Below, piece by piece: positions 2,559 through 63,654 of a DNA stretch of 64,000 nucleotides; the first letter of the stretch is position 1; the number at the start of each line of letters is the position of its first letter. This DNA is from Bacteroidales bacterium. Its GTDB lineage: Bacteria > Bacteroidota > Bacteroidia > Bacteroidales > VadinHA17. Position numbers and translations under genes: made by a program. The stretch lies in assembly GCA_050014255.1 (NCBI GenBank), contig JBEKDR010000003.1:20497-84496 (forward strand), in the 5' to 3' direction. The notes beneath the pieces were generated by a model. That model saw nothing but the letters and a program-made list of their open reading frames with translations. It was not told where the DNA came from and searched no databases.

Positions 2559-3648
2559 ATGATAACTAATGAACAGATAAAAGCTTTATCGGGACGCCGC
2601 GACGCGTTAAGGAGGTATCTTTGACATCGAGGGGAAACTGGAACTCATCGCGGAAAAAGAAAACCTGTCCCAACAACCTGGTTTATGGGATGATCCTAAA
2701 AAGGCTGAAGATCTTCTGAAAAGCATTGCACAACTAAAAAGCTGGACAACAGCATTCGACAAAATAAATTCAGCCATCGATGATATCAATGTAATAAATG
2801 ACTTTTACAGGGAGGGAGAAGCAACTGAAGAAGAAGTTGATAACCAGTATCAGAACTGTCTTTCCATGATCGAAGACCTTGAGGTCAGGAATATGCTGCA
2901 GAAAGAGGAGGACCAGCTTGGGGCAATTCTGAAAATAAACTCGGGTGCCGGAGGTACAGAAAGCAACGACTGGGCTGCAATGCTCATGAGGATGTATCTG
3001 CGTTGGGCCGAAAGAAACAACTATAAGGTAAAAGAGCTTGATTATCAGCCTGGTGATGAGGTTGGCATAAAGACTGTGACACTGGAGATTGATGGTGAAC
3101 GGGCATATGGATATCTTAAGAGTGAAAACGGGGTGCACAGGCTTGTAAGGATTTCACCATTCAACGCACAGGGAAAACGTCAGACAACTTTTGCTTCGGT
3201 TTTTATATCACCCCTAGTTGATAACAATATTGAAATTGAAATTAACCCGGCTGATATTACATGGGATACATTCCGGTCGAGTGGTGCAGGGGGACAGAAT
3301 GTTAACAAGGTTGAGACAGCTGTCAGGTTAAGGCATAAACCTTCAGGACTGGTAATTGAAAACCAGGAGACACGATCGCAGCTCAATAATAAAGAGAACG
3401 CGATGAGGATCCTTAAATCGCAGCTTTATGAACTTGAGTTGAGAAAACAACAGGAGGAGCAGGCGAAAATTGAAGGGGAGAAGAAAAAGATTGAATGGGG
3501 CTCACAGATAAGATCTTATGTGCTGCATCCATATAAAATGGTTAAGGACTTGCGCACAAACCATGAGACCGGGAATGTTCAGGCAGTTCTGGATGGTGAC
3601 CTGAATCCGTTCATAAAATCTTTCCTGATGGAGTTTGCGGGGAAATAA
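2559..3648 (+). CDS. prfB: Peptide chain release factor 2, produced by a programmed +1 ribosomal frameshift: join(2559..2621, 2623..3648)
   Basis: Frame 0 reads [21 protein letters not shown] and then TGA at 2622-2624. The +1 frame continues [31 protein letters not shown]... into the 260-aa track ORF (2866..3648, same frame as 2623). The RF2-specific SPF motif ([11 protein letters not shown]) and the GGQ motif ([15 protein letters not shown]) are both present. Confidence 0.93.
2610..2625 (+). promoter_or_regulatory. prfB: RF2 autoregulatory +1 frameshift site: internal SD-like AGGAGG, 3-nt spacer, CTT TGA C
   Basis: The sequence AGGAGGTATCTTTGAC is read directly and is essentially the canonical prfB recoding cassette. 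Confidence 0.9.
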
Positions 3649-48996: not shown

Positions 48997-49065
48997 TATT
49001 TTCTTTGGTCTTTTCCTTTGTCTTCTATCTTTTATTTAAGGGTTTGCGGCATGCGGTGTGCGGTA

Positions 49066-50175
49066 TTATTCAAGTCTTATCTTAAATTTCCTTACGCTGA
49101 GTCCTATAAAAACCAGAGTCATCACTATCAGAATGAGTGTCTCTTTCCAGATATAAATAAAACCGGTTCCTTTTATCATAATGTTCTTTATTATCACAAT
49201 AAAGTATCTTGGTGGTAATATTGAACTTACATAATCATAAATTTTTGGCATGTTCTCAATTGGGAAAATAAATCCTGAAAGCAAGACAGTTGGCAACATC
49301 AACCCTATCAGGGAAATGAAGATAGCCTGTTGCATTGTTTTTGAGACTGTTGATATCAGAATTCCGAGAGTTAAACTCATCAATATGTAAAGCATGCATT
49401 CAGCAAGGAGAAGTATTATGCTTCCTTTCACCGGGAGCCCGAATACTAACCATGATAACAGAAGTATCAGAAGCACATTGACAAATGAGAGGAAGAAGTA
49501 GGGCATCACTTTTCCAAGAATTATCTGGATTGGACGAAGAGGGGAGACCAGCAAAACCTCCATTGTTCCAAACTCTTTTTCCCGTGTTATTGTAACGGAT
49601 GTCATCAATGCACATATCAGTATGAGGATTAAGGTTATAACTCCCGGGACAAACATAAAATGACTTTTAAGAGATGGATTATAAAGCATTTTTACTTCAG
49701 GGCTTATCCTGATAGCGTTCTTTAAGCCGGGTCCTGCTGACTCCATGGAGAAGTCATTCACTATCGAAGTCGTATAATTTGTAATAAGTGTGGCAGTATT
49801 AGGTTCAGATCCATCAGAAATAATACTCAGAGATGCGTTGCCTTCGCTTATCAGCTTTTTACCGAAATCATCTTCATATACTATTACAGCTTTGGTTTTA
49901 CCTTTTTTAAAGACTTTGTCGATATCTTCATAATTCAGTAGGTTTTCTGTTTTTTTAAAAAATCCTGAAGAGAAAATTTTGTCAGTCAGTTTAAGAGTTA
50001 TTTCATCATGTGATAAGTCGAGTACGGTAACGCCTGCATTTTTAATATCTGTACTTACTGCGTAACCGAAGATGAGTATTTGGGCAGCCGGAATACCAAA
50101 TAGTATAAAGAGTGTGCGATAATCCCTGAAAATATGCTGGAACTCTTTTTTTACAAAACCGAGCAATCGTTTCAT
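49066..50175 (-). CDS. ABC-2 type transporter permease
   Basis: 369 aa, with the same architecture as its paralogous neighbour. Confidence 0.8.
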   Translation of the reverse strand: MKRLLGFVKKEFQHIFRDYRTLFILFGIPAAQILIFGYAVSTDIKNAGVTVLDLSHDEITLKLTDKIFSSGFFKKTENLLNYEDIDKVFKKGKTKAVIVYEDDFGKKLISEGNASLSIISDGSEPNTATLITNYTTSIVNDFSMESAGPGLKNAIRISPEVKMLYNPSLKSHFMFVPGVITLILILICALMTSVTITREKEFGTMEVLLVSPLRPIQIILGKVMPYFFLSFVNVLLILLLSWLVFGLPVKGSIILLLAECMLYILMSLTLGILISTVSKTMQQAIFISLIGLMLPTVLLSGFIFPIENMPKIYDYVSSILPPRYFIVIIKNIMIKGTGFIYIWKETLILIVMTLVFIGLSVRKFKIRLE

Positions 50176-50897
50176 GGTCTCGCTATTTTAATAAATACCT
50201 CCTCAACAGATGCAGCATTATATTGCTTCTTTAGCTTTTCAGGTGTGTCCAGCGCTACAATCTTCCCTTCGTTCATTATTGAGATCCTGTCGCAGTATTC
50301 CGCTTCATCCATATAATGTGTTGTAACGAATACAGTTATCCCTCTTGAAGCTGTTTCATATATCGTTTCCCAGAACTGTCTTCTGGTAATTGGATCTACA
50401 CCACCAGTGGGTTCATCAAGAAATACGATTTTTGGTTCGTGCAATACTGCAACTGAGAAGGCAAGCTTTTGTCTTAGTCCGAGAGGAAGATCTGATATCA
50501 TTCTGTTCTCGTCTTTCTGAAAATGGAGCTTTTCGAGCAGACTGGCAAGCCTTTCCCTGATAAAAGATTTGCTCATACCATAAATACCGCCATATAATAT
50601 AATGTTTTCTTTCACGGTCAGGTCTTCATAAAGTGAGAATTTCTGACACATATAACCGATATTCTTTTTAATCATTTCTGCCTGTTTGTAGGCGTCGTAT
50701 CCGGCAACATTAACCTCTCCTGCGGTGGGTTTTGAAAGCCCTGAAAGAATCCTGAGAGCTGTTGTTTTTCCTGCACCGTTAGCCCCCAGAAATCCGAAAA
50801 TTTCACCTGCAAAAACATCAAAACTGAGATTATCGTTTGCAGTGAATTTCCCGAACTTCTTTACCAGATTCTTAACGTAGATTACCTTTTCAATCAT
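50172..50897 (-). CDS. ABC transporter ATP-binding protein
   Basis: Walker A GANGAGKTT and Walker B IVFLDEPTGGVD. 241 aa. Confidence 0.9.
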   Translation of the reverse strand: MIEKVIYVKNLVKKFGKFTANDNLSFDVFAGEIFGFLGANGAGKTTALRILSGLSKPTAGEVNVAGYDAYKQAEMIKKNIGYMCQKFSLYEDLTVKENIILYGGIYGMSKSFIRERLASLLEKLHFQKDENRMISDLPLGLRQKLAFSVAVLHEPKIVFLDEPTGGVDPITRRQFWETIYETASRGITVFVTTHYMDEAEYCDRISIMNEGKIVALDTPEKLKKQYNAASVEEVFIKIARP

Positions 50898-50959
50898 CTA
50901 ATTAATGTTATGTTGTTTTGTCGTTATGTCAAAAATTGTCTTGTTGTTTTTATTTGCCT

Positions 50960-51076
50960 CTTTCCTGGGCCCTCCTCCTTCGCTAAAGCTTCGAAGGACA
51001 CGTGCGCCCTGCATTGCCAGCCGAATCCGCCTGCTGGCGGAGAAGGTTGGTGCCCTGAGCCCTTTACCCTGCGCCC
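50960..51076. repeat. GC-rich palindromic insert between the two ATPase genes of the operon
   Basis: Hairpin CCTTCG..CGAAGG (50977-50997). CCGCCTGCTGGCGG (51027-51040) is a one-mismatch variant of the 14-mer seen at 1926 and 44923. The track ORFs 50905..51147 and 50910..51143 are its translations. Confidence 0.75.
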
Positions 51077-51997
51077 TTATTCCGCTCCCCCTTTTTCCAT
51101 CAGTTCGAGGAACCTGTCTTCAATTCCTGCTTCAGCTTCCTGAATAACCGCATCATTAATACCTTCTCTTATCAGGTATTCAAAAAGGGAATTATCTGAT
51201 GAATCGTTAAATAATGTCACATGTATAGAGTCGCCAAACGGATATGCTGTGAGAACCTCCTGATTTTTCCTGAGTGTTTTAATCAGCTTGTATTTCTCAA
51301 CCGATTTAACGGTAAAAAGTTTTCTGCTGAAACCGGCTCTGATCTTTTGAGGTGTATCAATTGACAGGATTTTCCCATTCTGTATCAGAGCCACTCTGTC
51401 GCATCGAATGGCTTCATCCATATAAGGTGTTGATACAATGATAGATATATTATGTTGTCGTAATTTACTCAGCATATCCCAGAACTCTGATCTTGAAACA
51501 GCATCAACTCCTGTCGTCGGTTCATCCAGAACAAGAAGCCTGGGTTTATGAATCAGTGCACAGGATAGCGCCAGCTTTTGCTTCATACCTCCTGACAGTT
51601 TACCGGCCAGGCGCTTTTTGAACGGTTCTATGTGAGAGTAGATATCTGCAATAAGCTCATAATTTTCCTCAACTGTAGTTCCAAATACAGTTGCATAAAA
51701 ATTTAGATTTTCTTCGACAGAAAGATCCTGGTACAGGCTGAACCTGCCTGGCATATAACCTATGTTTTTCCGAAGTTGGTTATAGTCAGATGTAGCATCC
51801 ATGCCAAGGACTTTCATATTCCCTATATCAGGCAATAACAGTGTGGTAATGATCCTGAACAAGGTGGTTTTTCCGGCGCCATCCGGACCAATAAATCCAA
51901 AAATCTCAGATTCATTTACCGAAAAGGTAATATCATCAAGAGCCAATATTGGTCCAAAGGATTTAGTTATACCCGATGATTCAATAGCTTTTATCAT
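51077..51997 (-). CDS. ABC transporter ATP-binding protein
   Basis: Walker A GPDGAGKTT, signature LSGGMKQKL and Walker B LLVLDEPTTGVD. Start set at ATG 51997 (MIKAIESSGITKSF), 4 nt after the HlyD stop. Confidence 0.9.
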   Translation of the reverse strand: MIKAIESSGITKSFGPILALDDITFSVNESEIFGFIGPDGAGKTTLFRIITTLLLPDIGNMKVLGMDATSDYNQLRKNIGYMPGRFSLYQDLSVEENLNFYATVFGTTVEENYELIADIYSHIEPFKKRLAGKLSGGMKQKLALSCALIHKPRLLVLDEPTTGVDAVSRSEFWDMLSKLRQHNISIIVSTPYMDEAIRCDRVALIQNGKILSIDTPQKIRAGFSRKLFTVKSVEKYKLIKTLRKNQEVLTAYPFGDSIHVTLFNDSSDNSLFEYLIREGINDAVIQEAEAGIEDRFLELMEKGGAE

Positions 51998-52001
51998 CTG
52001 A

Positions 52002-52895
52002 TTATTTTTGCCCGATTGTGAAAAGAGCCTCACCCGGCATTCCCGATTTAAGGGTGCCATCATTTATTACATCTATTTTCACTGCATAGACCATTATCAC
52101 ACGTTCCTCCTTTGTCTGAATGATTTTAGGAGTAAACTCAGCCTTATCCGATATGTAACTGATAGTTCCTGTGAATGAACTGAATCCCTTTTCGCCATTA
52201 TCAATCCTAACCGTACATGTCTGCCCGATTTTTATTTTGCCCAACTGTGCACCGCTTACAAAAGCCTTTAACTTAATAATTGAAAGATCTGCTATTTTAA
52301 CAAGAGGTTTGCCTGCAGCTGTTATCTCTCCTGCTTCTGAATACTTTTCGATGATTGTCCCTTTCAGAGGGCTTTTTACATAACACCTTTTTATCTGATC
52401 ATTCAGTGTGGCTTTTTTCGATTTAGAGACAGACAATTCTGCTGCCACGGAGGCTTTTTGAGTATTATTTGCCGTGATCTGTTTTTGTAAAACAGAAACC
52501 TGTCCTGTCAGATCGTCATATTGTTTTTGGGTCGCGGCATCGTCCTTAAGCATTTTTCCGAACCTTGAGATATTCACATTTATATTTTCGATCTGCTGAT
52601 TAAGGATATCATTCTGAGCATTGATTGAACTGATAGTAGTTTTAATACTCTTCATACCGGCGTCAATTTCATCAGCCTGCAGATGCAGGACTGTGGTGTC
52701 AATCAGGGCAATTATTCCATTCTTATCTACCAGAGTACCCTCTACAGGATCAAACTTCATGATTCTCCCGTTCGTTTCAGCGGAGATAATGACTTCAGTC
52801 GCTTCAAAATTCCCGAATGCATCAGCTTTATCGGTTTTGTTTTTGCAGCCGGCCAGAAACATGGCGGCAATTATTATTAATGATGTGGTTTTCAT
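52002..52895 (-). CDS. HlyD-family membrane fusion lipoprotein
   Basis: Lipobox AAMFLAGC. Coiled-coil hairpin flanked by beta-barrel segments (YVKSPLKGTI). Confidence 0.85.
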   Translation of the reverse strand: MKTTSLIIIAAMFLAGCKNKTDKADAFGNFEATEVIISAETNGRIMKFDPVEGTLVDKNGIIALIDTTVLHLQADEIDAGMKSIKTTISSINAQNDILNQQIENINVNISRFGKMLKDDAATQKQYDDLTGQVSVLQKQITANNTQKASVAAELSVSKSKKATLNDQIKRCYVKSPLKGTIIEKYSEAGEITAAGKPLVKIADLSIIKLKAFVSGAQLGKIKIGQTCTVRIDNGEKGFSSFTGTISYISDKAEFTPKIIQTKEERVIMVYAVKIDVINDGTLKSGMPGEALFTIGQK

Positions 52896-52924
52896 ATTGT
52901 TAAAATATATTGTTAATCAATGAA

Positions 52925-54223
52925 TTATTCTATCTCTTTTCCGCTTATATTCAGATATTCAATCTTCGCCATTGAAAGATTTATTTTATGGATCTCAAAA
53001 TTTATCTGAGCCTGACGTTCCGAATTAAGCTCGTTCAGGTATTCAGTTGCTGTGATAGTACCGTTTTGATATTGCGATTCAGCTGAGGCAGTAATTCTTT
53101 TCCTCAGGGTAATAAGTTCATTATCCCTGTCTATCAGAGCCTTTATGCTTAGGATTTCAGCATTTTTTGAAACAAGAAGCCTGTTCAGGTTATCTGTCAG
53201 ATCGTTTTTCCTGTTTTCAATAATGCTTTGTTGAAATGTGATTATTTGTTTCTCATTTTTGGTTTTGTTCCAGTCGAATATGTTCCATTTGACACTGGCT
53301 CCGACTATATAATAAGGAGCAAACTCATTTTTAAAAAAGTTGCTGCCCGGAGGGTTGCCGTACCCGAGCGTGGCAAATCCAAAGGCTTTCGGCATTCTGT
53401 TGCTTTCTATGACTTTCAATCCGGCTCCAAGTTGATCTTTTCTCATATCCAGTAATTGTAATTCGGGTCGCATTAATTCATTTGAAAATTCCACGGTCTG
53501 AGACGGAACAACAAATTCTGTTGAAGTTTCTATATCTTTGCCGGTAAGATTTGACAGGACTTTAAGAAAAGAGACTTTCATTATCTCATTTTCAGCCAGT
53601 TGCTGTTCAATATTAATTTTTTCCGATGTCAGAACATCAATATCTGATTTAATAATAACACCGTTGTTAATTCCGGATTGCATAGAAGAGATGCGTTTTT
53701 CTATTAACTCAAGATATGTACCCAGCAGTTCTTTCTGCCTTGCAAGCAGCAACAGGTTGAAATAATAATTGTTAATCTCTGCGCGAAGTTTATACAGATC
53801 TGTTTCGGTCTGCTTCTGATTAACATTCATATCGGCTTTTTCAAGTGCCCTGGCGCCTTTTATTGCCCCACCGTCGTAAATAACCTGATTAATATCGAGA
53901 GTGATTTTATATTGTTCATTGGGAAGAGGTTTTATAGCGTTTGCGATACCCGGTATTGGGAGCGCGCCAAGAACCCCGCTCAGATCAACCACCGAGGAAT
54001 TGTAGATTAAGCTCCCGTTTGCATCCAGTGAGGGGAGCCATCCCTTTACCAGATTTTCATCTCTTAGTTTTGAAATATCAGAATAACCTTTTTTTTCACC
54101 GGCAAGAGCGTTAGCAGACATTGCCATATCGTAACACTCCTTAAGAGTCAGAATTATTTGAGCCTGTATTGTTAACTGCCAGGGAATTATCAGAATCATC
54201 AGAATCAGGACTTTCCTTTTCAT
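52925..54223 (-). CDS. TolC-family outer membrane efflux protein
   Basis: Signal peptide from ATG 54223 (MKRKVLILMILIIPWQLTIQAQ). Duplicated coiled-coil/beta repeat pattern. Confidence 0.85.
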   Translation of the reverse strand: MKRKVLILMILIIPWQLTIQAQIILTLKECYDMAMSANALAGEKKGYSDISKLRDENLVKGWLPSLDANGSLIYNSSVVDLSGVLGALPIPGIANAIKPLPNEQYKITLDINQVIYDGGAIKGARALEKADMNVNQKQTETDLYKLRAEINNYYFNLLLLARQKELLGTYLELIEKRISSMQSGINNGVIIKSDIDVLTSEKINIEQQLAENEIMKVSFLKVLSNLTGKDIETSTEFVVPSQTVEFSNELMRPELQLLDMRKDQLGAGLKVIESNRMPKAFGFATLGYGNPPGSNFFKNEFAPYYIVGASVKWNIFDWNKTKNEKQIITFQQSIIENRKNDLTDNLNRLLVSKNAEILSIKALIDRDNELITLRKRITASAESQYQNGTITATEYLNELNSERQAQINFEIHKINLSMAKIEYLNISGKEIE

Positions 54224-54280
54224 TTCTTTTTCTATTAAAAAATTTACAATTTTTTGCACTACGGGCATTTCAGGGACTTC

Positions 54281-54892
54281 TTACCTGGTTATGGCTTTTA
54301 TTACAAAATCCGCAGCGAATTCTTTTCTCAATTCTATATATTTATCAAAATCAACTCCCAGGTTATCAAATACAACTTCAAGAATTCCTTTAGCAGCAAA
54401 CGGGAAAACGCTCATTGAAGCGATTGACGTCAGGATCTGAGGCAGCGTCTCCTCCGTCAGATTATACTTGTATAATTCATTTTCATGATGTTTAAGGATC
54501 GTGAGCCACAAATATTTGAAATCAATATTCTTGATAAGCTTCTGTATCCTTTGGGGGTTATGATTTATTTCATTCAGAATGAACCCGGGAAGTTTCGGAT
54601 TCTGCTGCATGAAGGTAATATGCTCCCTGAAGAAGAACCTGATTTTTTCTTCAAGGGAAAGATCTTTTTCAAAAATAGGGGTGAATTTCATGAACATTTT
54701 CTTTGCCAGTTTGGTAAAGACAGCCTCAAAAAGATGATCCTTTGTCCGGAAATAATAATGAAGCAACGCCTTATTAATACCTGCCCGATCAGCTATTCTC
54801 TGCATTCTGGCACCTGTCAGTCCTTCCTCTTCGAAAACTATTTCAGCAGCTTCAAAGATCTTATCCTCTGTCAGTTTTTCGTTTTCGCTCAT
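54281..54892 (-). CDS. TetR/AcrR family transcriptional regulator
   Basis: N-terminal HTH (GLTGARMQRIADRAGINKALLHYYFRTKDHLF). Confidence 0.9.
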   Translation of the reverse strand: MSENEKLTEDKIFEAAEIVFEEEGLTGARMQRIADRAGINKALLHYYFRTKDHLFEAVFTKLAKKMFMKFTPIFEKDLSLEEKIRFFFREHITFMQQNPKLPGFILNEINHNPQRIQKLIKNIDFKYLWLTILKHHENELYKYNLTEETLPQILTSIASMSVFPFAAKGILEVVFDNLGVDFDKYIELRKEFAADFVIKAITR

Positions 54893-55057: not shown

Positions 55058-55708
55058 ATGATGCATAACAGGAAGCTGACAAGGTTATCCGGATTTGACT
55101 ATTCTGAGAACAGGAATTACTTTTTCACAATTTGTATTCAGAACCACGAGAAAACATTTGGCTCAATTGCAAACAAATCAATGTTATTATCGAAAAATGG
55201 TATTATTGCAATGGAACAATGGCAATGGTTGGGCAATCAATACCCGTACAGTGATTTAATTTCATTTGTAATTATGCCGGATCATGTACATGGAATAATT
55301 TATATTGATACTGATTTTTATAAACATTATGTAGGGAACGGTCGCGACCGTTCCCTACACATAAACCCCGACCGTTCCCTACACATAAACCCCGACCGTT
55401 CCCTACACATAAACCCCGACCGTTCCCTACACATAAACCCCGACCGTTCCCTACACATAAACCCCGACCATTCCCTACACATAAACCCCGACTGTTCTCT
55501 ACCCACAAATCAAACAAATCCCAAGATCAAACCATTACCTGAATTAATCGGTGCATATAAAACAACCGTATCAAAACGAATACATATGTCAGGTGATGTG
55601 AATTTTAAATGGCAAAAATCATATTACGAACATATCATCAGAAATCGACGATCATTGATTTTGATCAAACATTATATCGAAACCAATCCGGAACATTGGA
55701 TTGTGTAG
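55058..55708 (+). CDS. IS200/IS605-family HUH tyrosine transposase of the REP-associated (RAYT-like) type, with a repeat-encoded 56-aa insertion
   Basis: HUH motif IMPDHVHGII and catalytic Tyr context WQKSYYEHIIRN. The insertion between them reads VGNGRDRSLHINP(DRSLHINP)x4 DHSLHINPDCSLPTNQ. Confidence 0.8.
   Translation: MMHNRKLTRLSGFDYSENRNYFFTICIQNHEKTFGSIANKSMLLSKNGIIAMEQWQWLGNQYPYSDLISFVIMPDHVHGIIYIDTDFYKHYVGNGRDRSLHINPDRSLHINPDRSLHINPDRSLHINPDRSLHINPDHSLHINPDCSLPTNQTNPKIKPLPELIGAYKTTVSKRIHMSGDVNFKWQKSYYEHIIRNRRSLILIKHYIETNPEHWIV
55331..55512 (+). repeat. 28-bp perfect palindrome followed by about 6 tandem 24-bp units (half-site CGACCGTTCCCTAC + ACATAAACCC) inside the transposase CDS
   Basis: GTAGGGAACGGTCGCGACCGTTCCCTAC at 55331-55358. 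Units start at 55345, 55369, 55393, 55417, 55441 and 55465, with a degenerate unit at 55489. Confidence 0.95.
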
Positions 55709-55901
55709 GGAACGGTCGCGACCGTTCCCTACATTAAATTCGACCGTTCCCTACATTAAATTCGACCGTTCCCTACAATCAATTCGACCGTTCCCTACAT
55801 CAAATTCGACCGTTCCCTGCATCCAATTCGACCGTTCCCTGCATCCAGTTCGACCGTTGTATGATAATAAATCACCAGTAACGGTCGCGACCGTTCCCTA
55901 C
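55705..55901 (+). repeat. The same 28-bp palindrome overlapping the transposase stop codon, then about 6.5 tandem 22-bp units of the same half-site, closed by a truncated palindrome
   Basis: Palindrome at 55705-55732 (TAG stop at 55706-55708). Units start at 55719, 55741, 55763, 55785, 55807 and 55829, with a partial unit at 55851. AACGGTCGCGACCGTTCCCTAC at 55880-55901. Confidence 0.95.
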
Positions 55902-55954
55902 AGAACGTTATCATTCACGTTAAATATTCGTATTCACAAAAAAAAATAAAAACT

Positions 55955-55991
55955 ATTGCATTTATAAAAAATAATATTTTATATTTGCAAT
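55955..55991 (+). promoter_or_regulatory. Candidate promoter (TTG-N21-TATATTTG) overlapped by the inverted repeat ATTGCA-N25-TGCAAT; possible PadR operator
   Basis: TTG at 55956-55958, TATATTTG at 55980-55987, and IR arms at 55955-55960 / 55986-55991. It lies about 30 nt upstream of the padR ATG. Confidence 0.4.
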
Positions 55992-56017
55992 ATATAAATA
56001 ACTTATATATTAAAAAT

Positions 56018-56362
56018 ATGATACCAACAGACCTTATTAAAGGATCGTTAAAGACAATAGTTCTGAAACTATTGAAAGAAAATGGGCGCATGTATGGTTA
56101 CGAAATTACCCGGAAGGTGGAAGAACTGACAAATGGCAAGATAAAACTGACGTATGGTGCTCTTTATCCTGTGTTGCATAAACTTGAAAGCGAAGGAGTT
56201 CTTGTTACTGAATCGGAAAACTTCAATAACCGTATCCGGATCTACTACCTGCTGACACCCCACGGACAATCCGTTGTCGCTGAGAAGATAAAAGAACTGA
56301 ACGAGTTCATTGAATCTCTTCAGCGGATAGTTGATACCAGACCAGGATTAAGCCATGCCTGA
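56018..56362 (+). CDS. PadR family transcriptional regulator
   Basis: LKGSLKTIVLKLLKENGRMYGYEITRKVEELTNGKIKLTYGALYPVLHKLESEGVL is the canonical PadR winged helix. ATG 56018 is preferred over TTG 55985. Confidence 0.9.
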   Translation: MIPTDLIKGSLKTIVLKLLKENGRMYGYEITRKVEELTNGKIKLTYGALYPVLHKLESEGVLVTESENFNNRIRIYYLLTPHGQSVVAEKIKELNEFIESLQRIVDTRPGLSHA

Positions 56363-57788
56363 ACTCAGTCTGCAGCATATTGATCTGATCAGCCACGACA
56401 TCAGCAGACAGGAGATCATATTTTCACATCTCCTCGAAGATCTTGTCGATCATGTATGCTGTGATGTGGAAAATGAGATGCAGAAAGGGATGAGCTTCAC
56501 TGAAGCTTATCAGAGGGTAAAACAAAAAATGGGACCACGAAGGTTAAAAGAGATTCAGGAAGAAACACTTTATGCAGTTGATACAAAATACAGATTTATG
56601 AAAAACATGATGAAAATTTCAGGCGTTGCAGGCACGGTATTGTTTGGCTTTGCAGCAATATTTAAAATTCAGCACTGGCCCCTTGCAGGGGTTCTAATGA
56701 CTCTTGGGGCTTTCCTTCTCGCATTTATTTTCCTGCCGTCAGCTCTGAGTGTACTTTGGAAAGAGTCTCATAACCGGAAGAGAATATTCCTGTTTATATC
56801 AGCGTTTTTTGCAGGGGTGCTCTTGATTTCAGGGATTCTCTTTAAAATTCAGCACTGGCCAATAGCAGGAGCAATTTTAACCCTGGCAGCATTATCCGGT
56901 ATTCTGTTTTTTATCCCGGCACTGGTTCTAAGCAGACTGTCGGATCAGGATAACAAAGCCAAGCGCCCCGCCTACATCCTGGGTTCAGCTGGCTCAGTGC
57001 TATTTATTGCCGGTATGCTCTTTAAAATACAGCACTGGCCCCTCGCAACTGTGTTTTTGCTTACCGGAATATTCCTTTTATGCTTCCTGGCGTTCCCCAT
57101 GTTTACCCGGCTTACCTGGAAGGAAGAAAGTCATATTAGTTCCATGTTCATTTTCCTGGTCATTGGATTTCTATTAATTGTAGTCCCGGGAGCTATGGTA
57201 ACCCTGAACCTGCAGCATTCATACCAGGCTTATTATTATCCTAATAATGATCAACAGAATGCATTATATGATTATTTATTCAGGAATAACAGTTCTATGA
57301 TCAGCCGATATAGCGATTCCTTAAACTACGATAAGATGGAACAGCTGCATTTAAAAACTGCTGGAATTCTTGCAACTATAAGCAATATCCAGGAGAAGAT
57401 GGTTCAGGAATCAGAAGGGCAACCAGGCAAACCTGCCGTGAGCGATGGTCAGATAAGTCAGACTAAAACCGGTCAGGAAATATTATACATGAAACTTTCA
57501 AGACCGTTCGATCCCCGACCAGCGAAGGTTTTTCTTTTGCCTGGCTGTAGTACGCGGATGGAACTTAATTCGTCAATGGCAGAATATGTAAGCTACTTAA
57601 CCAGCATAACTCCTTCAGAAGATTTGCTGAAGTACAAAAAAATGCTTGACATAGAAACATTCCTGCCTGACGGAAAACCAGAAAAAGGTGAAATGTCTTT
57701 AATGGCAGGCCTTCACACTCTTGAAATTATGAAAAACGGGATGCTTACGGTTGAATCATGTGTATTAAAAAGAATTGTAAAACATTGA
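56355..57788 (+). CDS. PadR-associated polytopic protein: cytoplasmic helical head, three GldL-like KxxHW TM hairpins, a 7th TM, and an extracytoplasmic GldM-N-like domain
   Basis: Motifs AIFKIQHWPLAG, ILFKIQHWPIAG and MLFKIQHWPLAT each sit between two hydrophobic helices. A final TM (FIFLVIGFLLIVVPGAMVTL) is followed by about 190 soluble residues. The start overlaps the padR stop (ATGCCTGA). Confidence 0.6.
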   Translation: MPELSLQHIDLISHDISRQEIIFSHLLEDLVDHVCCDVENEMQKGMSFTEAYQRVKQKMGPRRLKEIQEETLYAVDTKYRFMKNMMKISGVAGTVLFGFAAIFKIQHWPLAGVLMTLGAFLLAFIFLPSALSVLWKESHNRKRIFLFISAFFAGVLLISGILFKIQHWPIAGAILTLAALSGILFFIPALVLSRLSDQDNKAKRPAYILGSAGSVLFIAGMLFKIQHWPLATVFLLTGIFLLCFLAFPMFTRLTWKEESHISSMFIFLVIGFLLIVVPGAMVTLNLQHSYQAYYYPNNDQQNALYDYLFRNNSSMISRYSDSLNYDKMEQLHLKTAGILATISNIQEKMVQESEGQPGKPAVSDGQISQTKTGQEILYMKLSRPFDPRPAKVFLLPGCSTRMELNSSMAEYVSYLTSITPSEDLLKYKKMLDIETFLPDGKPEKGEMSLMAGLHTLEIMKNGMLTVESCVLKRIVKH

Positions 57789-57811
57789 TATTAAATTAAA
57801 TACATAAAACT

Positions 57812-58762
57812 ATGAAACAAAAGATATATATTCTCGGATTGATTACAACCATGATTCTTTCCACCGGGATAATATTAAAAGTGAACCATTGGGCGGGAGC
57901 AGGAATTTTGATGGCTGCAGGATTTTTGATCCTGGTCCTGATATTTTTTCCTGCAGCGTTGATAAATAATTACAAGGCTGAAGGCAATACTCAGAACAGG
58001 TTACTTTATATAGTAACATACATTACTTGTTTTGTTGTCTTCACAGGAATGCTTTTTAAAATACAGCACTGGCCAAATGCGGGAATAGCACTTCTTATTG
58101 CCCTTCCTTTTCCATATATTGTATTTCTTCCAGTTTTTCTGGTTGTTACATCGAAGAATAAGAATTTCAATATCTACAATACGATCTTTGTCTTGCTTCT
58201 GCTTGCATTGAATTCGGTGTTCTCGGCACTTCTTTCATTAAATGTATCAAAAGAAACCATTGATGACAGTTATAACCTATCATGGAATTATAACAAATTA
58301 GAAGCCTCCGCCGCTCAACTCCCGATAATTGTCAATGGATCAGCAGTTGATATGAAAATTGATGAAATAATTAAGATCTCGAATAACTATCAGGATCTGA
58401 TATTAAAACATGAAGGAATGACCCGTGAACAGTGGAAGAAAAATCCGGGGAATCTGGTAAGACCTGATAATGTAAATACGGCTGCATCAATACTGGCTGA
58501 CAACGGTGAGATGACTCCCGGGATGAAGCTCGACAAGGCCATCACTGAGCTTATTGATCTGATGAAGCAAACCAAAGGCTTTGAAGATGCGGCCAAAGCT
58601 CTGCCTTCAATCATGGATCTTAATGAAGAAAAAGAGAAGGATGACGCTTTGAATTTCTATAGCAGGAATATCTTTGTTCCTCTTTCCTGGGCCCTTATTT
58701 ACCTCGATGGTCTTGAAGCAAACCTTTATATGATAAAAGCGTCTGCGCCTGCAGTCAATTAA
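57812..58762 (+). CDS. Paralogous polytopic protein: two GldL-like KxxHW hairpins, a 5th TM, and a GldM-N-like extracytoplasmic domain
   Basis: IILKVNHWAGAG and MLFKIQHWPNAG hairpins. TM ...LLLLALNSVFSALLSL is followed by NVSKETIDDSY, which resembles the GldM/PorM ..ALNVSKEV.. junction. Confidence 0.6.
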   Translation: MKQKIYILGLITTMILSTGIILKVNHWAGAGILMAAGFLILVLIFFPAALINNYKAEGNTQNRLLYIVTYITCFVVFTGMLFKIQHWPNAGIALLIALPFPYIVFLPVFLVVTSKNKNFNIYNTIFVLLLLALNSVFSALLSLNVSKETIDDSYNLSWNYNKLEASAAQLPIIVNGSAVDMKIDEIIKISNNYQDLILKHEGMTREQWKKNPGNLVRPDNVNTAASILADNGEMTPGMKLDKAITELIDLMKQTKGFEDAAKALPSIMDLNEEKEKDDALNFYSRNIFVPLSWALIYLDGLEANLYMIKASAPAVN

Positions 58763-58933
58763 TGCCAGTTAATTGATCTGAAGAACTAGGGATATACTTA
58801 CTGTGTGTCCCTATTTTCATTTTGATACATACCCGAAATTCAGCCTTCTGTCGGTAAATCCTCCCAATACTTCTATTAAGTTTTCACAGGGTTCTGTCTC
58901 CCTATACATTTATCCCAAAATCTAAAAAGGTTT

Positions 58934-60262
58934 ATGAGAAAATTGATTTTAATATTAGGTTTTGGGGTGATTGCAGGGATATGCCAGGGAATGTCTTTAA
59001 ATGAACAGCAGGATTCTGTGTGGACTCTCCAAAAATGTATTGAACATGCTTTGACCAATAATATACAGGTAAGAAAAACCCAGCTTACAAACAAACAAAA
59101 CATGGTAAACGCCGAAGAAGCTAAAGCACAACGGTTCCCTTCGGCTAACGCTTCAGTCAATCAGAATTTCAACTGGGCCAGAAGCACAGCGACCGGAGAA
59201 TCCGGTCTAACTGGTAGCAATGGTTCAAATTATTCAGTGAATTCGGGAATCACAATTTTTAATGCATCGAGGCTTACAGCCCTTATAAAGCAGTCAGAGC
59301 TGAACATTGAAAGCGGAAACTACTCGCTTGAGACCACTAAAGAATCAATAAGCCTGAGTATTCTCGACGCATATCTTCAAATACTATATGCTGAAGAACA
59401 GGTAAGAAACAGTGAGAAGCAACTGGAATCTTCAACCAGTGAGCTTAATCTTGCTGAAGAGCGACTGACACTTCAGGCTATCTCCAAAACCGATTATGCC
59501 CAGGTAAAATCACAGGTGGCAACCGAGAAGCTTACCCTTGCTAATTCACAAAGTCAGCTCGTAATTGCCAAAGTGACTCTCGAGCAATTTATGGAACTCC
59601 CCGTCGCGGATAATTTTGAAATCGCACATCCCGATCTGAGTGAGTCTTTAAATCAGAACAGGGCGCCTGATGTTAAATTAGTTTATGAAACAGCACTGGC
59701 CATAAAACCACAGATAAAAAATGCTGCCGTCAATAAGGAAATTGCTTCACTCGATGAGAAAGTTGCACGATCAGGTCTGTTCCCCATACTTACTGCCAGT
59801 GCCGGAATCACTTCAGGATTTACAAGTCTGAGCAATGAATCTTACTTTGGCCAGTTAAACAGCGGAATTTATCCTTCCGCCGGATTCTCGCTTTCCATTC
59901 CAATTTATCAGAAGAAGCAGGTCAGGACCAGTATTGCGCTTGCTAAAATCGGTTATCAGAATGCTGAGCTGAGTGAATTTGATTCAAAGAACACTCTAAG
60001 GAAAAGCATCGAACAAGCATGTGTCGATGTAAGGTCGGCTCAGATCAAATATGAAGCCAGCAAAGAGAATTACAGTGCAACACTTGAAGCTTCACTCCTT
60101 TCAGATGAAAAATTTGCACAGGGAGTCATTAACTCAGTTGATTACCTGGTTTCAAAAACGAACCTGATAGTTGCAGAAAGTGAGTTATTGCAATCAAAAT
60201 ATAACCTGATAGTCAGCTACAAAATCCTCGATTTTTATATGGGAATTCCTCTATCGCTATAA
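58934..60262 (+). CDS. TolC-family outer membrane efflux protein
   Basis: Signal peptide. Conserved start LQKCIEHALTNNIQVRK. Tandem coiled-coil repeats. 442 aa. Confidence 0.88.
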   Translation: MRKLILILGFGVIAGICQGMSLNEQQDSVWTLQKCIEHALTNNIQVRKTQLTNKQNMVNAEEAKAQRFPSANASVNQNFNWARSTATGESGLTGSNGSNYSVNSGITIFNASRLTALIKQSELNIESGNYSLETTKESISLSILDAYLQILYAEEQVRNSEKQLESSTSELNLAEERLTLQAISKTDYAQVKSQVATEKLTLANSQSQLVIAKVTLEQFMELPVADNFEIAHPDLSESLNQNRAPDVKLVYETALAIKPQIKNAAVNKEIASLDEKVARSGLFPILTASAGITSGFTSLSNESYFGQLNSGIYPSAGFSLSIPIYQKKQVRTSIALAKIGYQNAELSEFDSKNTLRKSIEQACVDVRSAQIKYEASKENYSATLEASLLSDEKFAQGVINSVDYLVSKTNLIVAESELLQSKYNLIVSYKILDFYMGIPLSL

Positions 60263-60325
60263 AAGACAAAAGACAATCCACCTTCGCCAAGGCTACGGTG
60301 GACAAAGAAAGGTAAAAGACAAAAG
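60261..60325. repeat. Short hairpin (TCCACC-N14-GGTGGA) flanked by the direct repeat AAAAGACAAAAG, between tolC and the adaptor gene
   Basis: Direct repeats at 60261-60272 and 60314-60325. Stem arms at 60277-60282 / 60297-60302. Confidence 0.7.
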
Positions 60326-60340
60326 TAAATAGATAAGATA

Positions 60341-61624
60341 ATGAAAAAGAAAATGTTAATAATTATTGCAGCTGTCTCGGTTATCGGGATTGCTGCTATA
60401 CTGGCACTGAAACCCTTTTCAAAAAAGGAAGATGCGGTTTCATTCAATACTGTTAAAGTTGAGAAGGGCAACATCAGCAACACAGTTACTGCCACAGGAA
60501 CAATTGAAGCTATAAAAACTGTTAATGTGGGCACACAGGTTTCAGGGATCATTCAGCACATATATGTTGATTTTAATGATCATGTGAAGCAGGGACAATT
60601 ACTCGCAAAACTGGATACAACACCTCTCAGGACACAACTTGATCAGAGCCAGTCCGCGGTAGATCAGGCCATGTCCCAGCTTCGTTTCGAGGAGGCCACT
60701 TATAACCGGCTAAAGGTCCTGTACGATAAGAAGCTTATCGCACAAACCGATTATGACCAGGCATTGTATAACTTCGAGAATGCAAGAGCCTCCCTGTCGA
60801 ACGCCAGATCTGGTCTGGACAGGGCAAAAGTAAACCTGGATTATGCCACCATTACTTCTCCTATCGATGGAGTGGTACTGAACAGGGCAATTGAGGAAGG
60901 ACAGACAGTTGCAGCCAGCTTCAGCACCCCGACGCTCTTTACCATAGTGAATGACCTGACACAAATGGAAGTTCAGACAAGTGTTGATGAGGCTGATATA
61001 GGAAAGGTAAATAACGGGCAACGAGTTGAGTTTACAGTTGATGCATATCCGGATCTGAAATTTGAAGGTACTGTCTCTCAGGTCAGATTGCAGCCCGTAA
61101 CTACCAACAACGTAGTTACTTATGTAGTAATACTGAATGCTCCTAATCCTGAGAAAAAGCTTATGCCGGGAATGACTGCAAGTGCTACCATTTATGTTGA
61201 AGAAAAGACAAATACTTTAATGCTTTCCGGGAAAGCAGTACGATTTACTCCCGATCAGGCTTATATGATGAAAATGTTTGCAAAAATGAAGAACAGCGGC
61301 TCGATGCCAAAGATGCCGGCAGGAGCTCCTGCAGGTGGAGCCGGAATGCCTCAGAACGCTACTTCAGGACAAACCATGCAGGGAATGCCTGCATCAGCAA
61401 TGGCGGCTATGAATACCGATCCGAAAACGAAAACGGTCTGGTTAAAAGATGATAAAATGGGTATACGTCCAAACAGGATTAAAATTGGTATAGATAACGG
61501 AACAAATGTTGAGGTCCTCTCAGGTTTGAAGGAGGGAGACGAGGTCGTTATTTCTACAGGTGATACTGAAGCTAAAAGCACGGCAAAAAAGACCGATAAT
61601 GGTCCTCCTGGATTTCCTTTTTAA
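60341..61624 (+). CDS. MacA-type periplasmic adaptor (membrane fusion) protein with an internal Met/Pro/Ala/Gly-rich segment
   Basis: VTATGTIEAIKTVNVGTQVSGII, ITSPIDGVV and the beta-barrel/MPD pattern. Low-complexity run YMMKMFAKMKNSGSMPKMPAGAPAGGAGMPQNATSGQTMQGMPASAMAAMN. Confidence 0.85.
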   Translation: MKKKMLIIIAAVSVIGIAAILALKPFSKKEDAVSFNTVKVEKGNISNTVTATGTIEAIKTVNVGTQVSGIIQHIYVDFNDHVKQGQLLAKLDTTPLRTQLDQSQSAVDQAMSQLRFEEATYNRLKVLYDKKLIAQTDYDQALYNFENARASLSNARSGLDRAKVNLDYATITSPIDGVVLNRAIEEGQTVAASFSTPTLFTIVNDLTQMEVQTSVDEADIGKVNNGQRVEFTVDAYPDLKFEGTVSQVRLQPVTTNNVVTYVVILNAPNPEKKLMPGMTASATIYVEEKTNTLMLSGKAVRFTPDQAYMMKMFAKMKNSGSMPKMPAGAPAGGAGMPQNATSGQTMQGMPASAMAAMNTDPKTKTVWLKDDKMGIRPNRIKIGIDNGTNVEVLSGLKEGDEVVISTGDTEAKSTAKKTDNGPPGFPF

Positions 61625-61658
61625 AAAGTGAGAAGCAAAGAACTTAAAAGAAAGAAAT

Positions 61659-62414
61659 ATGAAAGATGCTATCATAGAGATAAAAAGCCTGAGGAAGGAT
61701 TACCATGTCGGTGAGGTCACGGTACATGCATTGCGCGGGGTGGATCTTAAAATCCATGAAGGGGAATTTGTTGCAATCATGGGCGCCAGCGGGTCGGGTA
61801 AATCGACAATGCTTAATATCCTGGGTTGCCTTGATAAGTCAACATATGGGGACTATCTGCTGGACGGGGTTAACGTTAATACCATGAATAACGATGCTCT
61901 TGCAAGATTCCGGAATAAAAAACTGGGATTTGTATTTCAGTCGTACAACCTGTTGGCCAGGACAACTGCCCTTGAGAATGTGGAACTCCCTCTCTTTTAT
62001 AATCCTAATATCAGGTCCAGGGAGCGAAAAGAATCGGCTCTCAGGGCGCTCGAAGCTGTAGGACTTTCAGATCGTATGCATCACATGCCAAACCAGTTAT
62101 CGGGTGGCCAGCAGCAAAGAGTGGCAATAGCCCGCTCGCTGGTTAATGATCCTGTCCTTATTCTTGCAGATGAACCAACAGGAAATCTCGATACCAGGAC
62201 ATCTTTTGAAATTATGGAATTGTTCCAGGATCTGAATGAAAAGGGCAGAACAATCGTGTATGTAACTCATGAAACTGATATTGCAAGATTTGCAACACGC
62301 AATGTAACCTTTAGCGATGGTAAAATTCAGCGTGAATGTCTTGTAAGCGAACGCCTCGATGCAAGAGATATACTGAAAACCATGCCTGTGGAATTAATAG
62401 AGGAATTTGATTAA
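61659..62414 (+). CDS. MacB/LolD-type ABC transporter ATP-binding protein
   Basis: Walker [10 protein letters not shown], signature [15 protein letters not shown] and Walker [12 protein letters not shown]. Confidence 0.93.
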
Positions 62415-62433
62415 TAAAGTAAATCTCAATGAA

Positions 62434-63654
62434 ATGAACTATACAAATTTATTCAGGATAGCGTTCCGGGCTCTGATAAGGAATAAGCTGAGAGCGTTTC
62501 TGACAATGCTGGGAATAATCATCGGAGTTGCTTCAGTGATCGCCATGCTGGCAATTGGCGAGGGTTCCAAACAGAAAATGAGGAAGCAGATATCCTCGAT
62601 GGGAACAAACATGGTAATGGTGATGCCTAACTTTCAGCGGAGAGGAGGCGTGAGCCTGGGAGCCTCAAGTTCAATGGCCCTTAAGTACACTGATGTACAG
62701 GCACTCAGGAACGAAGCCTCAGCTATTTCGGCAGTCTCGCCGGAAGTGGTGGCAAGCGGACAGATTATTTACAGTCACCAGAACACCCAGACAACAATAT
62801 ATGGTGTGAGCGAGGAATACCTGGGGATCAAAAAACTCGAGGTATTGAGCGGGAGATTTTTTAATGCCAATGAACTAAAAGATATGTCTAAGGTATGCAT
62901 ACTAGGGCAAACAGTCGTGACAAACCTTTTTGGGACAAAGGCAGATCCTGTAGGTCTTTCCATTCGCATAAAGAACCTTCCTTTTCTTATTGTAGGAGTC
63001 CTTAAAGAAAAAGGTGAAAGCGGAATGGGTCAGGATCAGGACGATTTGATACTCGCCCCGTATACTACAGTTCAGAGAAGGCTGGCGGCAATCGACTATA
63101 TAAACGGTATTTTTGCCTCAGCGGTAAGCGAGGAGAAGAGCCCGAAGGCTATCGCACAGGTTACAGAAATCCTGCGGAGGACTCATAAGCTGAAAGAGTC
63201 TGCTGATAATGATTTCAGGGTAATGTCACAATCAGAGCTTCTCAAAACGATTACTTCAATTACTGATATTATGACATATCTTCTTGGCGCTATTGCAGGA
63301 ATATCTTTGCTCGTCGGAGGAATTGGAATTATGAACATAATGTTTGTATCAGTGACTTAACGTACACGTGAAATCGGATTACGAATGTCAATAGGCGGAC
63401 GTGGTAAGGATATAATGAAACAGTTTCTCTCAGAGTCTATTATACTCAGCATTCTGGGAGGAGTGTTGGGAGTGCTTTTCGGCTATCTCCTGGCCAGACT
63501 GGCAGGATCGCTCATGAGCAGTCAGGCAATTGTGAAGACACAATCTGTAGTACTTGCATTCATTGTCTGTTTTGTCATTGGTGTTTTCTTCGGTTGGTAT
63601 CCTGCACGCAAGGCTGCGAATCTGAATCCGATCGATGCACTCAGGTACGAATAG
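62434..63654 (+). pseudogene. MacB/FtsX-type ABC permease interrupted by a single in-frame TAA (63358-63360)
   Basis: Track ORFs 62407..63360 and 63385..63654 are in the same frame. Read-through gives ...GIGIMNIMFVSVT*RTREIGLRMSIGG..., so the stop sits where this family has the conserved Glu of SVTERTREIG. Confidence 0.8.

Follow-up and report, generated by a model that had tools for sequence, protein, structure and literature searches.

What are the parts of a rotary motor doing behind the gene of a transcription factor? That question is raised by a padR gene and the two genes that follow it, called here P1 and P2, in a window of 64,000 nucleotides of DNA from a Bacteroidales bacterium. (Coordinates are those of the window and, one palindrome apart, refer to its + strand.) The three genes are closely linked. 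The first, padR (56018-56362), encodes 114 amino acids counted from its ATG, a single-domain winged-helix regulator of the PadR family that matches Pfam PadR with E 1.6e-18 and 66.9 bits (cut-off 27). P1 (56355-57788) encodes 477 amino acids and P2 (57812-58762) encodes 316. When the open reading frames were read again, they had the coordinates given in a preliminary description of the locus, and the overlap pointed out there is real: the padR stop and the P1 start share the eight nucleotides ATGCCTGA at 56355-56362, and exactly this 8-mer is kept in 68 of 78 orthologous loci.

P1 consists, in order, of a helical head, three hairpins of the GldL_N type, a seventh transmembrane (TM) helix and a periplasmic domain, while P2 lacks the head and combines two such hairpins with a single TM helix and a periplasmic domain. 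By hydropathy P1 has 7 TM segments and P2 has 5, the numbers that had been predicted. The topology suggested for them, with the N-terminus inside and the last helix crossing outward, is self-consistent and is that of GldL and GldM.

That the hairpins are of the GldL type, as the preliminary description supposed, can be accepted. Pfam GldL_N (PF22827) matches three stretches of P1 (E 2e-15, 57.1 bits) and two of P2 (E 3.5e-10, 40.4 bits), the cut-off being 24 bits, and the hairpin profile matches five GldL sequences from the PDB with a probability of 97.4% and E 1.2e-11. The hairpins occupy residues 85-258 of P1 (56607..57128; about 85-137, 143-197 and 204-258), each with FKIQHWP, and residues 3-117 of P2 (57818..58162), one with LKVNHWA and the other with FKIQHWP, so the five hairpin centres had been read correctly. 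All five hairpins have the equivalents of Lys27 and His30, invariant residues in the periplasmic loop of GldL, and these are kept in 71-75 of 75 orthologues of P1 and 71 of 71 of P2. The full-length GldL profile TIGR03513 gives 36.8 and 16.0 bits, below its cut-off of 68.3, with matches that cover only positions about 4-44 of 247; the cytoplasmic C-terminal domain of GldL is absent.

The remainder of each protein is residues 264-477 of P1 (57144..57785), comprising the seventh TM helix and a periplasmic helical domain like D1 of GldM/PorM, and residues 121-316 of P2 (58172..58759), comprising a fifth TM helix that ends in LLSLNVSKETI and a periplasmic D1-like domain. The junction motif of GldM/PorM named in the preliminary description is genuine: the PDB sequences have AMLAMNVSKEVI, ALLALNISKDIL and AMMALNVSSEVL, and the counterpart in P2 is ALLSLNVSKETI. 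By hhalign, a profile of diverse members of the P1 family aligns with four GldM/PorM sequences from the PDB at a probability of 99.3% and E 5e-20, over GldM residues 15-223; shuffled controls gave P of at least 0.19. A profile made only of close orthologues gives a weak match for the C-terminal part of P1 (P 0.014), yet one that is co-linear over 179 columns. The P2 family aligns with GldM/PorM over 168 columns (GldM residues 19-212) at a probability of 80% and E 1.4e-5, the soluble part of the P2 C-terminal domain taken alone is not significant against GldM/PorM by hhalign, and the C-terminal parts of P2 and P1 match each other (probability 96%, E 1.2e-9).

Structure prediction points the same way. 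The AF2 models are moderate (pLDDT 74 and 65) and the E-values from Foldseek weak (0.13-0.6), yet PorM/GldM comes first for both proteins: the top three for P1 are 6EY0, the N-terminal domain of PorM, with probability 1.00 and a target TM-score of 0.67-0.70, and those at the top for P2 are 7CMG (PorM), 7SAU_A (GldM, 224 columns), 6EY0 and 7SAX. Pfam GldM_1st (PF12081) does not detect P1 or P2 directly. Among 94 diverse members of the family it matches 63, and TIGR03517 matches 58; the family HMM matches PorM/GldM of the PDB with E 1e-21. From the profile-profile comparisons, from Foldseek and from GldM_1st in the family, it is established that the last TM helix and C-terminal domain of both P1 and P2 are remote homologues of GldM/PorM D1, and the GldM-type stalk claimed for each protein stands.

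How much of the motor is left? GldL5-GldM2 / PorL5-PorM2 (PDB 6YS8, 7SAT, 7SAU, 7SAX, 7SAZ) has the same GldL_N hairpin with its FK..H loop motif, the same N-terminal TM helix of GldM running into the LNVSKE junction and a helical D1, the same membrane topology and, when the two-gene form is summed, the same 10+2 helices. The differences are as plain. In P1 and P2 each chain holds both hairpins and stalk (3+1 and 2+1), neither protein continues beyond D1 into the D2-D4 domains of GldM, P1 carries a regulator-associated head at its N-terminus and sits behind padR, and in place of a gldKLMN/porKLMN operon the surroundings are padR and efflux genes. Also lost are the equivalents of GldL E49 and Y13 and of GldM R9 and Y17, all four required for motor function (10.1101/2020.05.11.089193). 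Glu49, invariant in TMH2 of GldL, gives way to L122, G182 and L242 in P1 and to L41 and P101 in P2, and Tyr13, conserved in TMH1, to G, A, G, G and T in the five hairpins. In the TM helix of GldM, the conserved Arg9 corresponds to F267 in P1 (F or Y in orthologues) and F126 in P2, and the invariant Tyr17 to I275 in P1 and N134 in P2.

The helix count and the homology to GldL and GldM would suit a working ion-driven 5:2 rotary motor made from two fused chains, but the residues just listed do not, and neither does the rest. The preliminary description had seen no acidic residue in the second helix of any hairpin; the same holds for 360 hairpins of the family, in which the frequency of Asp and Glu is about 0 in both TM helices. 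Its caution that a proton-driven rotor was unsupported was well placed, the proton-coupling residues of GldLM all being substituted. Each stalk helix is joined to the hairpin before it by a loop of 8-12 residues, and because of this covalent tether continuous rotation of the stalk is impossible. Nor are there D2-D4 domains to reach the outer membrane, and the system is coupled to a transcription factor. A working motor has almost no chance of being the right account. With all four residues replaced, the stalk tethered and the number of hairpins variable, it was rejected.

A hairpin ring around two single-pass stalks with periplasmic domains is a general idea shared with MotA5B2, ExbB5D2 and TolQ5R2, but P1 and P2 lack the conserved Asp/Glu in the membrane and have ring and axle covalently fused. 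No sequence relation to the MotA/ExbB/TolQ motors was detected except for a weak MotA_ExbB match in 1 of 94 family members (E 0.0012).

Does the count of five and two nevertheless mean something? Clustered at 50%, the family has more than 1,400 representatives, and there are at least 500 matches among Bacteroidota assemblies taken one genome per species. Its invariant core was surveyed in 80 genome loci and 80 metagenome loci: padR is the gene immediately upstream in 79 of the former and, where the upstream flank is complete, in nearly all of the latter. All variants have padR, the head and GldL_N hairpins in common; the number of hairpins, GldM_N and the partner gene vary. Two-gene loci have 3+2 hairpins, that is five hairpins and two stalk helices, in 84 cases out of 84, and these include P1s whose identity to the 2-hairpin search query is no more than about 26-30%. 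Partnerless relatives behind padR with a head, two hairpins and GldM_N make up 35 loci, at least 17 of which have an empty downstream flank of 1.7-6 kb. Still other relatives behind padR have a head with three hairpins and GldM_N alone, a head with four hairpins, a head with two hairpins and no GldM domain, or a head with one hairpin, and the smallest variants are proteins of about 200 amino acids with a head and two hairpins only. The 3+2 split of the two-gene loci, for which a survey had been suggested, is regular, but the 5+2 count is no rule of the family, since relatives have 1 to 4 hairpins with or without a stalk or partner. A hairpin number fixed across homologues had been set beforehand as a test, and on this point the numbers found speak against the idea.

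A narrower form of the idea is that one P1 and one P2 (L-L-L-M + L-L-M) make a heterodimer equivalent to the TM core of GldL5-GldM2, a fixed 5:2 bundle serving as a tethered, non-rotary, proton-blind switch, in which a shift of register between stalk and ring would be read by a HAAS-like head controlling PadR. It fits the 84 two-gene loci, among which no other combination was seen, the GldM-type TM helix and D1 in both proteins (GldM is a dimer), the invariance in all five hairpins of K27 and H30, residues with which the GldL loop touches D1 of GldM in the motor, and the topology shared with GldL and GldM. The 3+2 split may, however, mean simply that the two-gene form arose once, and the Lys and His are kept even in minimal proteins of the family without a GldM domain. 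Single-gene relatives with 2 or 3 hairpins and one stalk have no partner in up to 6 kb, and in others 1-4 hairpins occur without a GldM domain; because single-gene and stalkless relatives exist, the function of the family does not need five hairpins. The bundle is a real possibility, though a doubtful one. It would refine the explanation preferred below and does not contradict it.

P1 and P2 might instead modulate an authentic T9SS motor, mixing with GldL and GldM through the hairpin ring or from D1 to D1 and reporting its assembly to PadR. The shared domains, the retention of those loop residues of GldL that contact GldM D1, and a family found only in Bacteroidota would all agree with such a role. 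But there are no gldK/L/M/N genes near any locus examined, and D1 is very divergent from that of GldM, as seen in the failure of GldM_1st to detect either protein of the window. It would be surprising if this were the answer.

The part of P1 that has no counterpart in the motor is its head, residues 1-84 (56355..56606). The preliminary description had proposed a cytoplasmic helical head of about 85 amino acids, and the AF2 model places helices there at residues 6-17, 24-42 and from 48 onward. It resembles perm_prefix_1, which I take, also in view of the FtsX fusion mentioned in the paper on HAAS-PadR, to be the same thing as HAAS, a three-helix domain related to DUF1700, DUF1129 and DUF1048. 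NCBIfam NF038403 (perm_prefix_1) matches the head in the window below the cut-off (E 0.013); it matches 20 of 32 diverse heads of the family, with a best E of 2e-7, and 16 of 94 full-length members. No match of the head to Pfam DUF1700/DUF1129 or to the PDB was found. Heads of the family have the near-invariant motif L..L.DH.CC..E.....G..F..A, and of the GxP kink of HAAS, G60 is invariant and the next Pro is not, the family consensus being G-S/P-R-R.

In the HAAS-PadR dyad, an N-terminal helical domain is carried by multi-TM sensors that always stand beside a stand-alone PadR (PMC11237479), and the partners of HAAS include "uncharacterized 6TM, 4TM and 2TM domains" (PMC11237479, Ravi et al. 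2024). The locus is like these dyads, the PadR-adjacent perm_prefix_1-FtsX/MacB_PCD permeases (NF038403) included, in having a stand-alone padR directly upstream and a short cytoplasmic helical domain at the N-terminus of a multi-TM module (here head plus 7 TM), and the logic proposed is the same: a membrane signal would change the head, which would release or reconfigure PadR. It differs from them in that its module is made of GldL_N repeats and GldM_1st, which are not named in PMC11237479, in its second, headless subunit, and in the sub-threshold score of the window's own head.

What PadR might control can be approached through the DNA in front of it. A Bacteroidetes-type promoter of the padR operon is predicted from the sequence at 55956..55987, with a -33 box TTG(C) at 55956-55959 and a -7 box TATATTTG at 55980-55987, spaced by 21 nt; the consensus of Bacteroides promoters is TTTG / TAnnTTTG. 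In about 70 orthologous loci the boxes are kept although the sequence around them has diverged. Directly after the -7 box, 28 nt 5' of the padR ATG, stands the palindrome ATATATAAA-TAA-CTTATATAT (55990..56010, no strand), a putative PadR binding site. It is one mismatch from the perfect dyad ATATATAAG-N3-CTTATATAT and is the sole match to that dyad in the window at two mismatches or fewer. Among the 45 orthologous loci listed there is one copy of the palindrome per locus, which mostly lies at -27 to -30 of padR and in about eight loci at -44 to -122; none of these loci has it before TolC. Variant systems, the relatives behind padR, have related TATATA dyads.

Since no operator was found other than that of the padR-P1-P2 operon itself, P1 and P2 could be regulated effectors and not sensors. 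PadR would then sense the signal, perhaps a small ligand (many PadR regulators are ligand-responsive), and P1 and P2 would be the products it controls, protecting the envelope or remodelling the membrane. That the unit appears to be closed after P2 would also suit this: a terminator-like hairpin with an 11-bp stem followed by TTTTCATTTT is predicted, by pattern match and fold, at 58787..58823, 25 nt after the P2 stop. But every variant joins a conserved head with the perm_prefix_1 signature to its membrane module, which fits an adaptor that binds the regulator better, and translational coupling suggests that the partners are stoichiometric. Effectors of this kind seem improbable.

Beyond the hairpin Pfam recognizes a TolC-like OEP (58934-60262), HlyD/MacA (60341-61624), an ABC ATPase (61659-62414) and a MacB_PCD/FtsX permease (62407-63654), the last interrupted by an in-frame TAA. 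The pair could be a dedicated sensor of this pump, turning it on when substrates appear, and heads of the HAAS/perm_prefix type are elsewhere fused to permeases of the FtsX/MacB type (PMC11237479). The adjacency reported in the preliminary description holds here, and in 30 of 59 informative loci P2 is followed by TolC-MacAB, but the pump is absent there from the other 29, no palindrome of the padR type precedes TolC in any locus listed, the terminator-like hairpin lies between P2 and TolC, and the macB permease of this window has its stop. The link is weaker than had been implied, and a dedicated pump sensor is unlikely. TolC-MacAB (58934..63654) is a frequent neighbour, loosely linked to padR-P1-P2.

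I propose, as somewhat more probable than its negation, that padR-P1-P2 is an autoregulated membrane signalling operon of the PadR-HAAS type that re-uses a GldLM core disabled as a motor. A membrane sensor or anti-PadR device with a borrowed fold was only the alternative in the preliminary description, and it is now the better-supported reading: the residues of the motor are lost, and padR, head and hairpins are constant. The membrane module would have been recruited from the motor core of type 9 secretion and gliding and then disabled. PadR would bind the palindrome over the transcription start and so repress its own operon, and the head of P1 would bind or reconfigure PadR at the membrane. 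P1 and P2 would pair through their GldM-like TM helices and D1, as in the GldM dimer, with the hairpins packed around them. A cue from the membrane or periplasm that altered the packing of the bundle could then be passed through TM1 to the head, altering the activity of PadR. Only by read-through of the terminator would the adjacent MacAB-TolC pump be a candidate output.

Such an arrangement has parallels in BlaR1/BlaI and the membrane anti-sigma factors, in which a small cytoplasmic DNA-binding regulator likewise stands beside a multi-pass protein with an extracytoplasmic domain, its presumed controller, in an autoregulated operon. The folds are unrelated, and the padR-P1-P2 system showed neither a protease nor a zinc-finger anti-sigma domain.

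Very few ion-driven rotary machines are known. GldLM is among them and has been regarded as specific to T9SS and gliding. Its two core modules also occur outside those systems, fused, without the residues of the proton path and tied to a transcription factor, in a large and uncharacterised family. The HAAS-PadR class would gain a defined and structurally tractable sensor module, and some of its "uncharacterized 6TM/4TM/2TM" partners would be identified. The family is also a natural experiment that sets the architectural features of the motor (the FK..H loop, the LNVSKE junction and D1) against the energetic ones (E49, R9, Y13 and Y17). If the 3+2 pair does form a 5:2 bundle, it would offer structural work a ready-made locked state, a motor turned switch.

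The locus holds three open reading frames on the forward strand, padR (56018-56362), P1 (56355-57788, 477 aa), and P2 (57812-58762, 316 aa), exactly where the preliminary description placed them. The 8-mer ATGCCTGA contains both the padR stop and the P1 start and is kept in 68 of 78 orthologous loci. Hydropathy gives seven transmembrane (TM) segments in P1 and five in P2, and the motif F/L-K-I/V-Q/N-H-W appears five times, every copy ending the first helix of its hairpin.

The hairpins are of the GldL type. Pfam finds GldL_N (PF22827) in three stretches of P1 (57.1 bits) and in two of P2 (40.4 bits), the cut-off being 24, and a profile built from 360 hairpins of the family aligns with the N-termini of five PDB-verified GldL/PorL sequences at a probability of 97.4% (E 1.2e-11). 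Against PDB sequences, single-sequence and close-orthologue profile searches give marginal matches to GldL (E 0.017-0.9), and the family HMM gives E 6.5e-6. Of 94 diverse P1 relatives, 93 contain GldL_N according to Pfam and 90 contain GldL according to NCBIfam. The full-length GldL model (TIGR03513) stays below its cut-off (36.8 bits vs 68.3); only the hairpin is common to P1/P2 and GldL.

The relationship to GldM becomes significant only once diverse family profiles are used. Pfam detects GldM in neither P1 nor P2, and single-sequence and close-orthologue profile searches find no GldM among PDB sequences. With close-orthologue profiles, which are too narrow (Neff 1.7-1.9), hhalign yields P 2e-4 for P2 and nothing significant for P1; the P1 stalk part, represented only by orthologues of at least 44% identity, is weak against GldM (P 0.014), yet co-linear. 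When diverse family profiles are set against true GldM/PorM sequences taken from PDB alignments, TM7 and the C-terminal domain of P1 align with GldM residues 15-223 (probability 99.3%, E 5e-20), TM5 and the C-terminal domain of P2 with residues 19-212 (80%, E 1.4e-5), and the C-terminal parts of P1 and P2 with each other (96%, E 1.2e-9), while reversed and column-shuffled controls give P of at least 0.19. The family HMM reaches PorM/GldM in the PDB at E 1e-21.

AlphaFold2 models of P1 (pLDDT 74.3) and P2 (65.2), compared with the PDB by Foldseek, independently rank PorM/GldM first, with weak E values (0.13-0.6). The P1 model matches three chains of 6EY0 (A, D, and B) at probability 1.00 and a target TM-score of 0.67-0.70, and the P2 model matches 7CMG_B, 7SAU_A (224 columns, TM helix included), 6EY0_D, and 7SAX. 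The soluble P2 domain alone is not significant against D1, the N-terminal periplasmic domain of GldM (P 0.14); it is assigned to GldM on the strength of the junction at the TM helix, a full-length alignment that is co-linear, its tie to the P1 domain, and the ranking of PorM/GldM by Foldseek. Among the 94 P1 relatives, Pfam recognizes GldM_1st (PF12081) in 63 (best E 1.9e-24) and NCBIfam recognizes GldM in 58; at the family level, these independent curated models concur on GldL plus GldM domains. Given hhalign, Foldseek, and the curated Pfam/NCBIfam models, it was correct to read both proteins as fusions in which GldL-type hairpins lead into a TM helix and D1 of the GldM type. This domain composition is nearly certain. 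The P2 stalk helix has polar residues within the membrane, at 134-135 and 144 (about 58211-58243): S135 is found in 70 of 71 sequences, N134, at the position of GldM Tyr17, in 40, and N144, part of the LNVSKE junction, in 67.

If the parts are those of a motor, is the whole a motor? GldL E49 and GldM Y17 are invariant, proton coupling centres on an R9-E49 salt bridge, and the loop of GldL touches the GldM periplasmic domain through its invariant residues K27 and H30 (10.1101/2020.05.11.089193; 10.1101/2022.01.28.478170). Each of the five hairpins, and essentially every orthologue, retains the equivalents of K27 and H30. At the position of GldL E49 stand L122, G182, and L242 of P1 and L41 and P101 of P2; at that of GldL Y13, G, A, and G of P1 and G and T of P2; at that of GldM R9, F267 of P1 and F126 of P2; and at that of GldM Y17, I275 of P1 and N134 of P2. 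Acidic residues are nearly missing from both helices across the 360 family hairpins. In P1 and P2 alike, a loop of 8-12 residues connects the stalk helix covalently to the hairpin before it, so that the helix cannot turn continuously. Unlike GldM, neither protein has domains D2-D4. A working proton motor is rejected, since the motor residues are replaced and the stalks tethered. The GldLM core has here kept the contacts that define its architecture and lost its energy-coupling chemistry.

The preliminary description also pointed to the sum of five hairpins and two stalks, as in GldL5M2, and had itself named arbitrary hairpin numbers in homologues as counting against its idea. Such variation is what the relatives show. 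The species-level genomes examined, 80 in number, are without exception uncultured Bacteroidales/Rikenellaceae-type MAGs, and their P1 identities range from 44 to 81%. In 73 of them the order is padR, P1 (head, three hairpins, GldM_N), P2 (two hairpins, GldM_N), the others being contig ends save one locus (L073), which is without P2. Representatives down to about 25% identity mostly have a head and three hairpins, and forms with two and four also occur. Another 80 loci were retrieved from metagenomes using variant forms; wherever the flank is complete, padR lies immediately upstream. In 35 complete metagenome loci there is a partnerless protein of head, two hairpins, and GldM_N (at least 17 of them with 1.7-6 kb of partner-free sequence downstream), and 11 have the 3+2 pair. 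Further variants consist of head, three hairpins, and GldM_N alone, or of head and four or three hairpins, each plus a bare stalk helix; the minimal ones have a head and two hairpins only (about 200 aa) or a head and one hairpin. Two relatives, L127 (3988-5055) and L128 (5567-6439), have the head and four or three hairpins and stop after a bare GldM-like TM helix (NNFLFLIYLLVF...), lacking the periplasmic domain; they resemble natural truncations that retained the stalk helix and dropped D1. Five hairpins are therefore not a family requirement. All 84 of 84 two-gene loci are 3+2, so a 5:2-like bundle is possible in the two-gene clade; that P1 and P2 form such a bundle as a fixed structure seems rather doubtful.

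What is constant across the family is PadR, the head, and the operator. The head (84 residues) carries a near-invariant L..L.DH.CC..E.....G..F..A. The NCBIfam model perm_prefix_1 (NF038403) matches 20 of 32 diverse heads (best E 2e-7), P1's own head falling under the cut-off (E 0.013). Ravi et al. (PMC11237479) describe HAAS-PadR dyads, put forward as an alternative to two-component systems, in which multi-TM modules (FtsX/MacB_PCD, FtsW, and 'uncharacterized 6TM, 4TM and 2TM domains') carry a fused helical domain at the N-terminus and a stand-alone PadR is always adjacent; GldL is unmentioned there. A literature search returned no GldL/GldM fusions like P1/P2, and no relevant work on GldL with PadR, on GldL/GldM-like proteins, or on PF22827/PF12081. 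The head matches none of DUF1700, DUF1129, and DUF1048, and Pfam, PDB, and Foldseek yield no independent identification. Because the assignment lacks a direct Pfam DUF1700 or PDB match, the head is termed HAAS-like.

Upstream of padR lies a Bacteroidetes-type promoter (TTG at 55956, TATATTTG at 55980-55987), directly followed by a palindrome, ATATATAAATAACTTATATAT (55990-56010), the putative PadR operator. Each locus has a single copy of the palindrome, which in most of the listed orthologous loci is positioned at -27 to -30 relative to the padR ATG; related dyads are present in the variant systems. Its position and conservation fit autorepression, in which PadR would repress its own operon at the transcription start. 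No second operator was found before TolC or elsewhere in the window. In one metagenome locus (L138), a short tandem repeat of CTTCCATCTTCGAT units (about 3200-3295) takes the place of the usual promoter and palindrome.

TolC-MacA-MacB follows P2 in the window, an arrangement shared by only 30 of 59 informative loci, and a terminator-like hairpin and T-run (58787-58813, then the T-run) stand after P2. Obligatory coupling to MacAB-TolC is rejected on the synteny, the terminator, and the missing operator; functional coupling through read-through is possible. The macB permease (62407-63654, MacB_PCD/FtsX) has an in-frame TAA at 63358-63360, GAA to TAA inside the conserved VSVT-E-RTREIG, which splits it into ORFs of 317 and 89 aa where orthologues are intact at 406 aa; either the gene is a pseudogene or the stop reflects a sequencing error. 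In several genomes where TolC-MacAB is missing from this position (L013, L018, L022), P2 is followed instead by a recurrent same-strand trio of ORFs of about 469, 190, and 331 aa. Upstream of padR, on the minus strand, is a second efflux cluster, a divergent TetR-OEP-HlyD-ABC-ABC2 operon (47878-54892). Besides the TetR regulator it encodes an OEP, a HlyD-type adaptor, a pair of ABC ATPases, and two ABC-2 permeases. Many orthologous loci have a similar pair of ATPases upstream of padR, so the sensor operon is often found between two export systems. Directly upstream of the padR promoter, an IS200/Y1-transposase-like ORF (55058-55949; Y1_Tnp E 3.7e-5 in Pfam) contains a 24-nt tandem array (55345-55509, 6.9 copies) coding for PDRSLHIN repeats. 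A second array, of period 22 (55719-55858, 6.4 copies), shares with it the core CGACCGTTCCCTACA; ORF and arrays resemble a REP-associated transposase and its repeats.

I propose, as the best explanation of P1 and P2, that they are the membrane module in a PadR-HAAS-type signalling system, one that is autoregulated and re-uses a disabled GldLM core. That padR-P1-P2 works by a sensor mechanism is somewhat the better bet.
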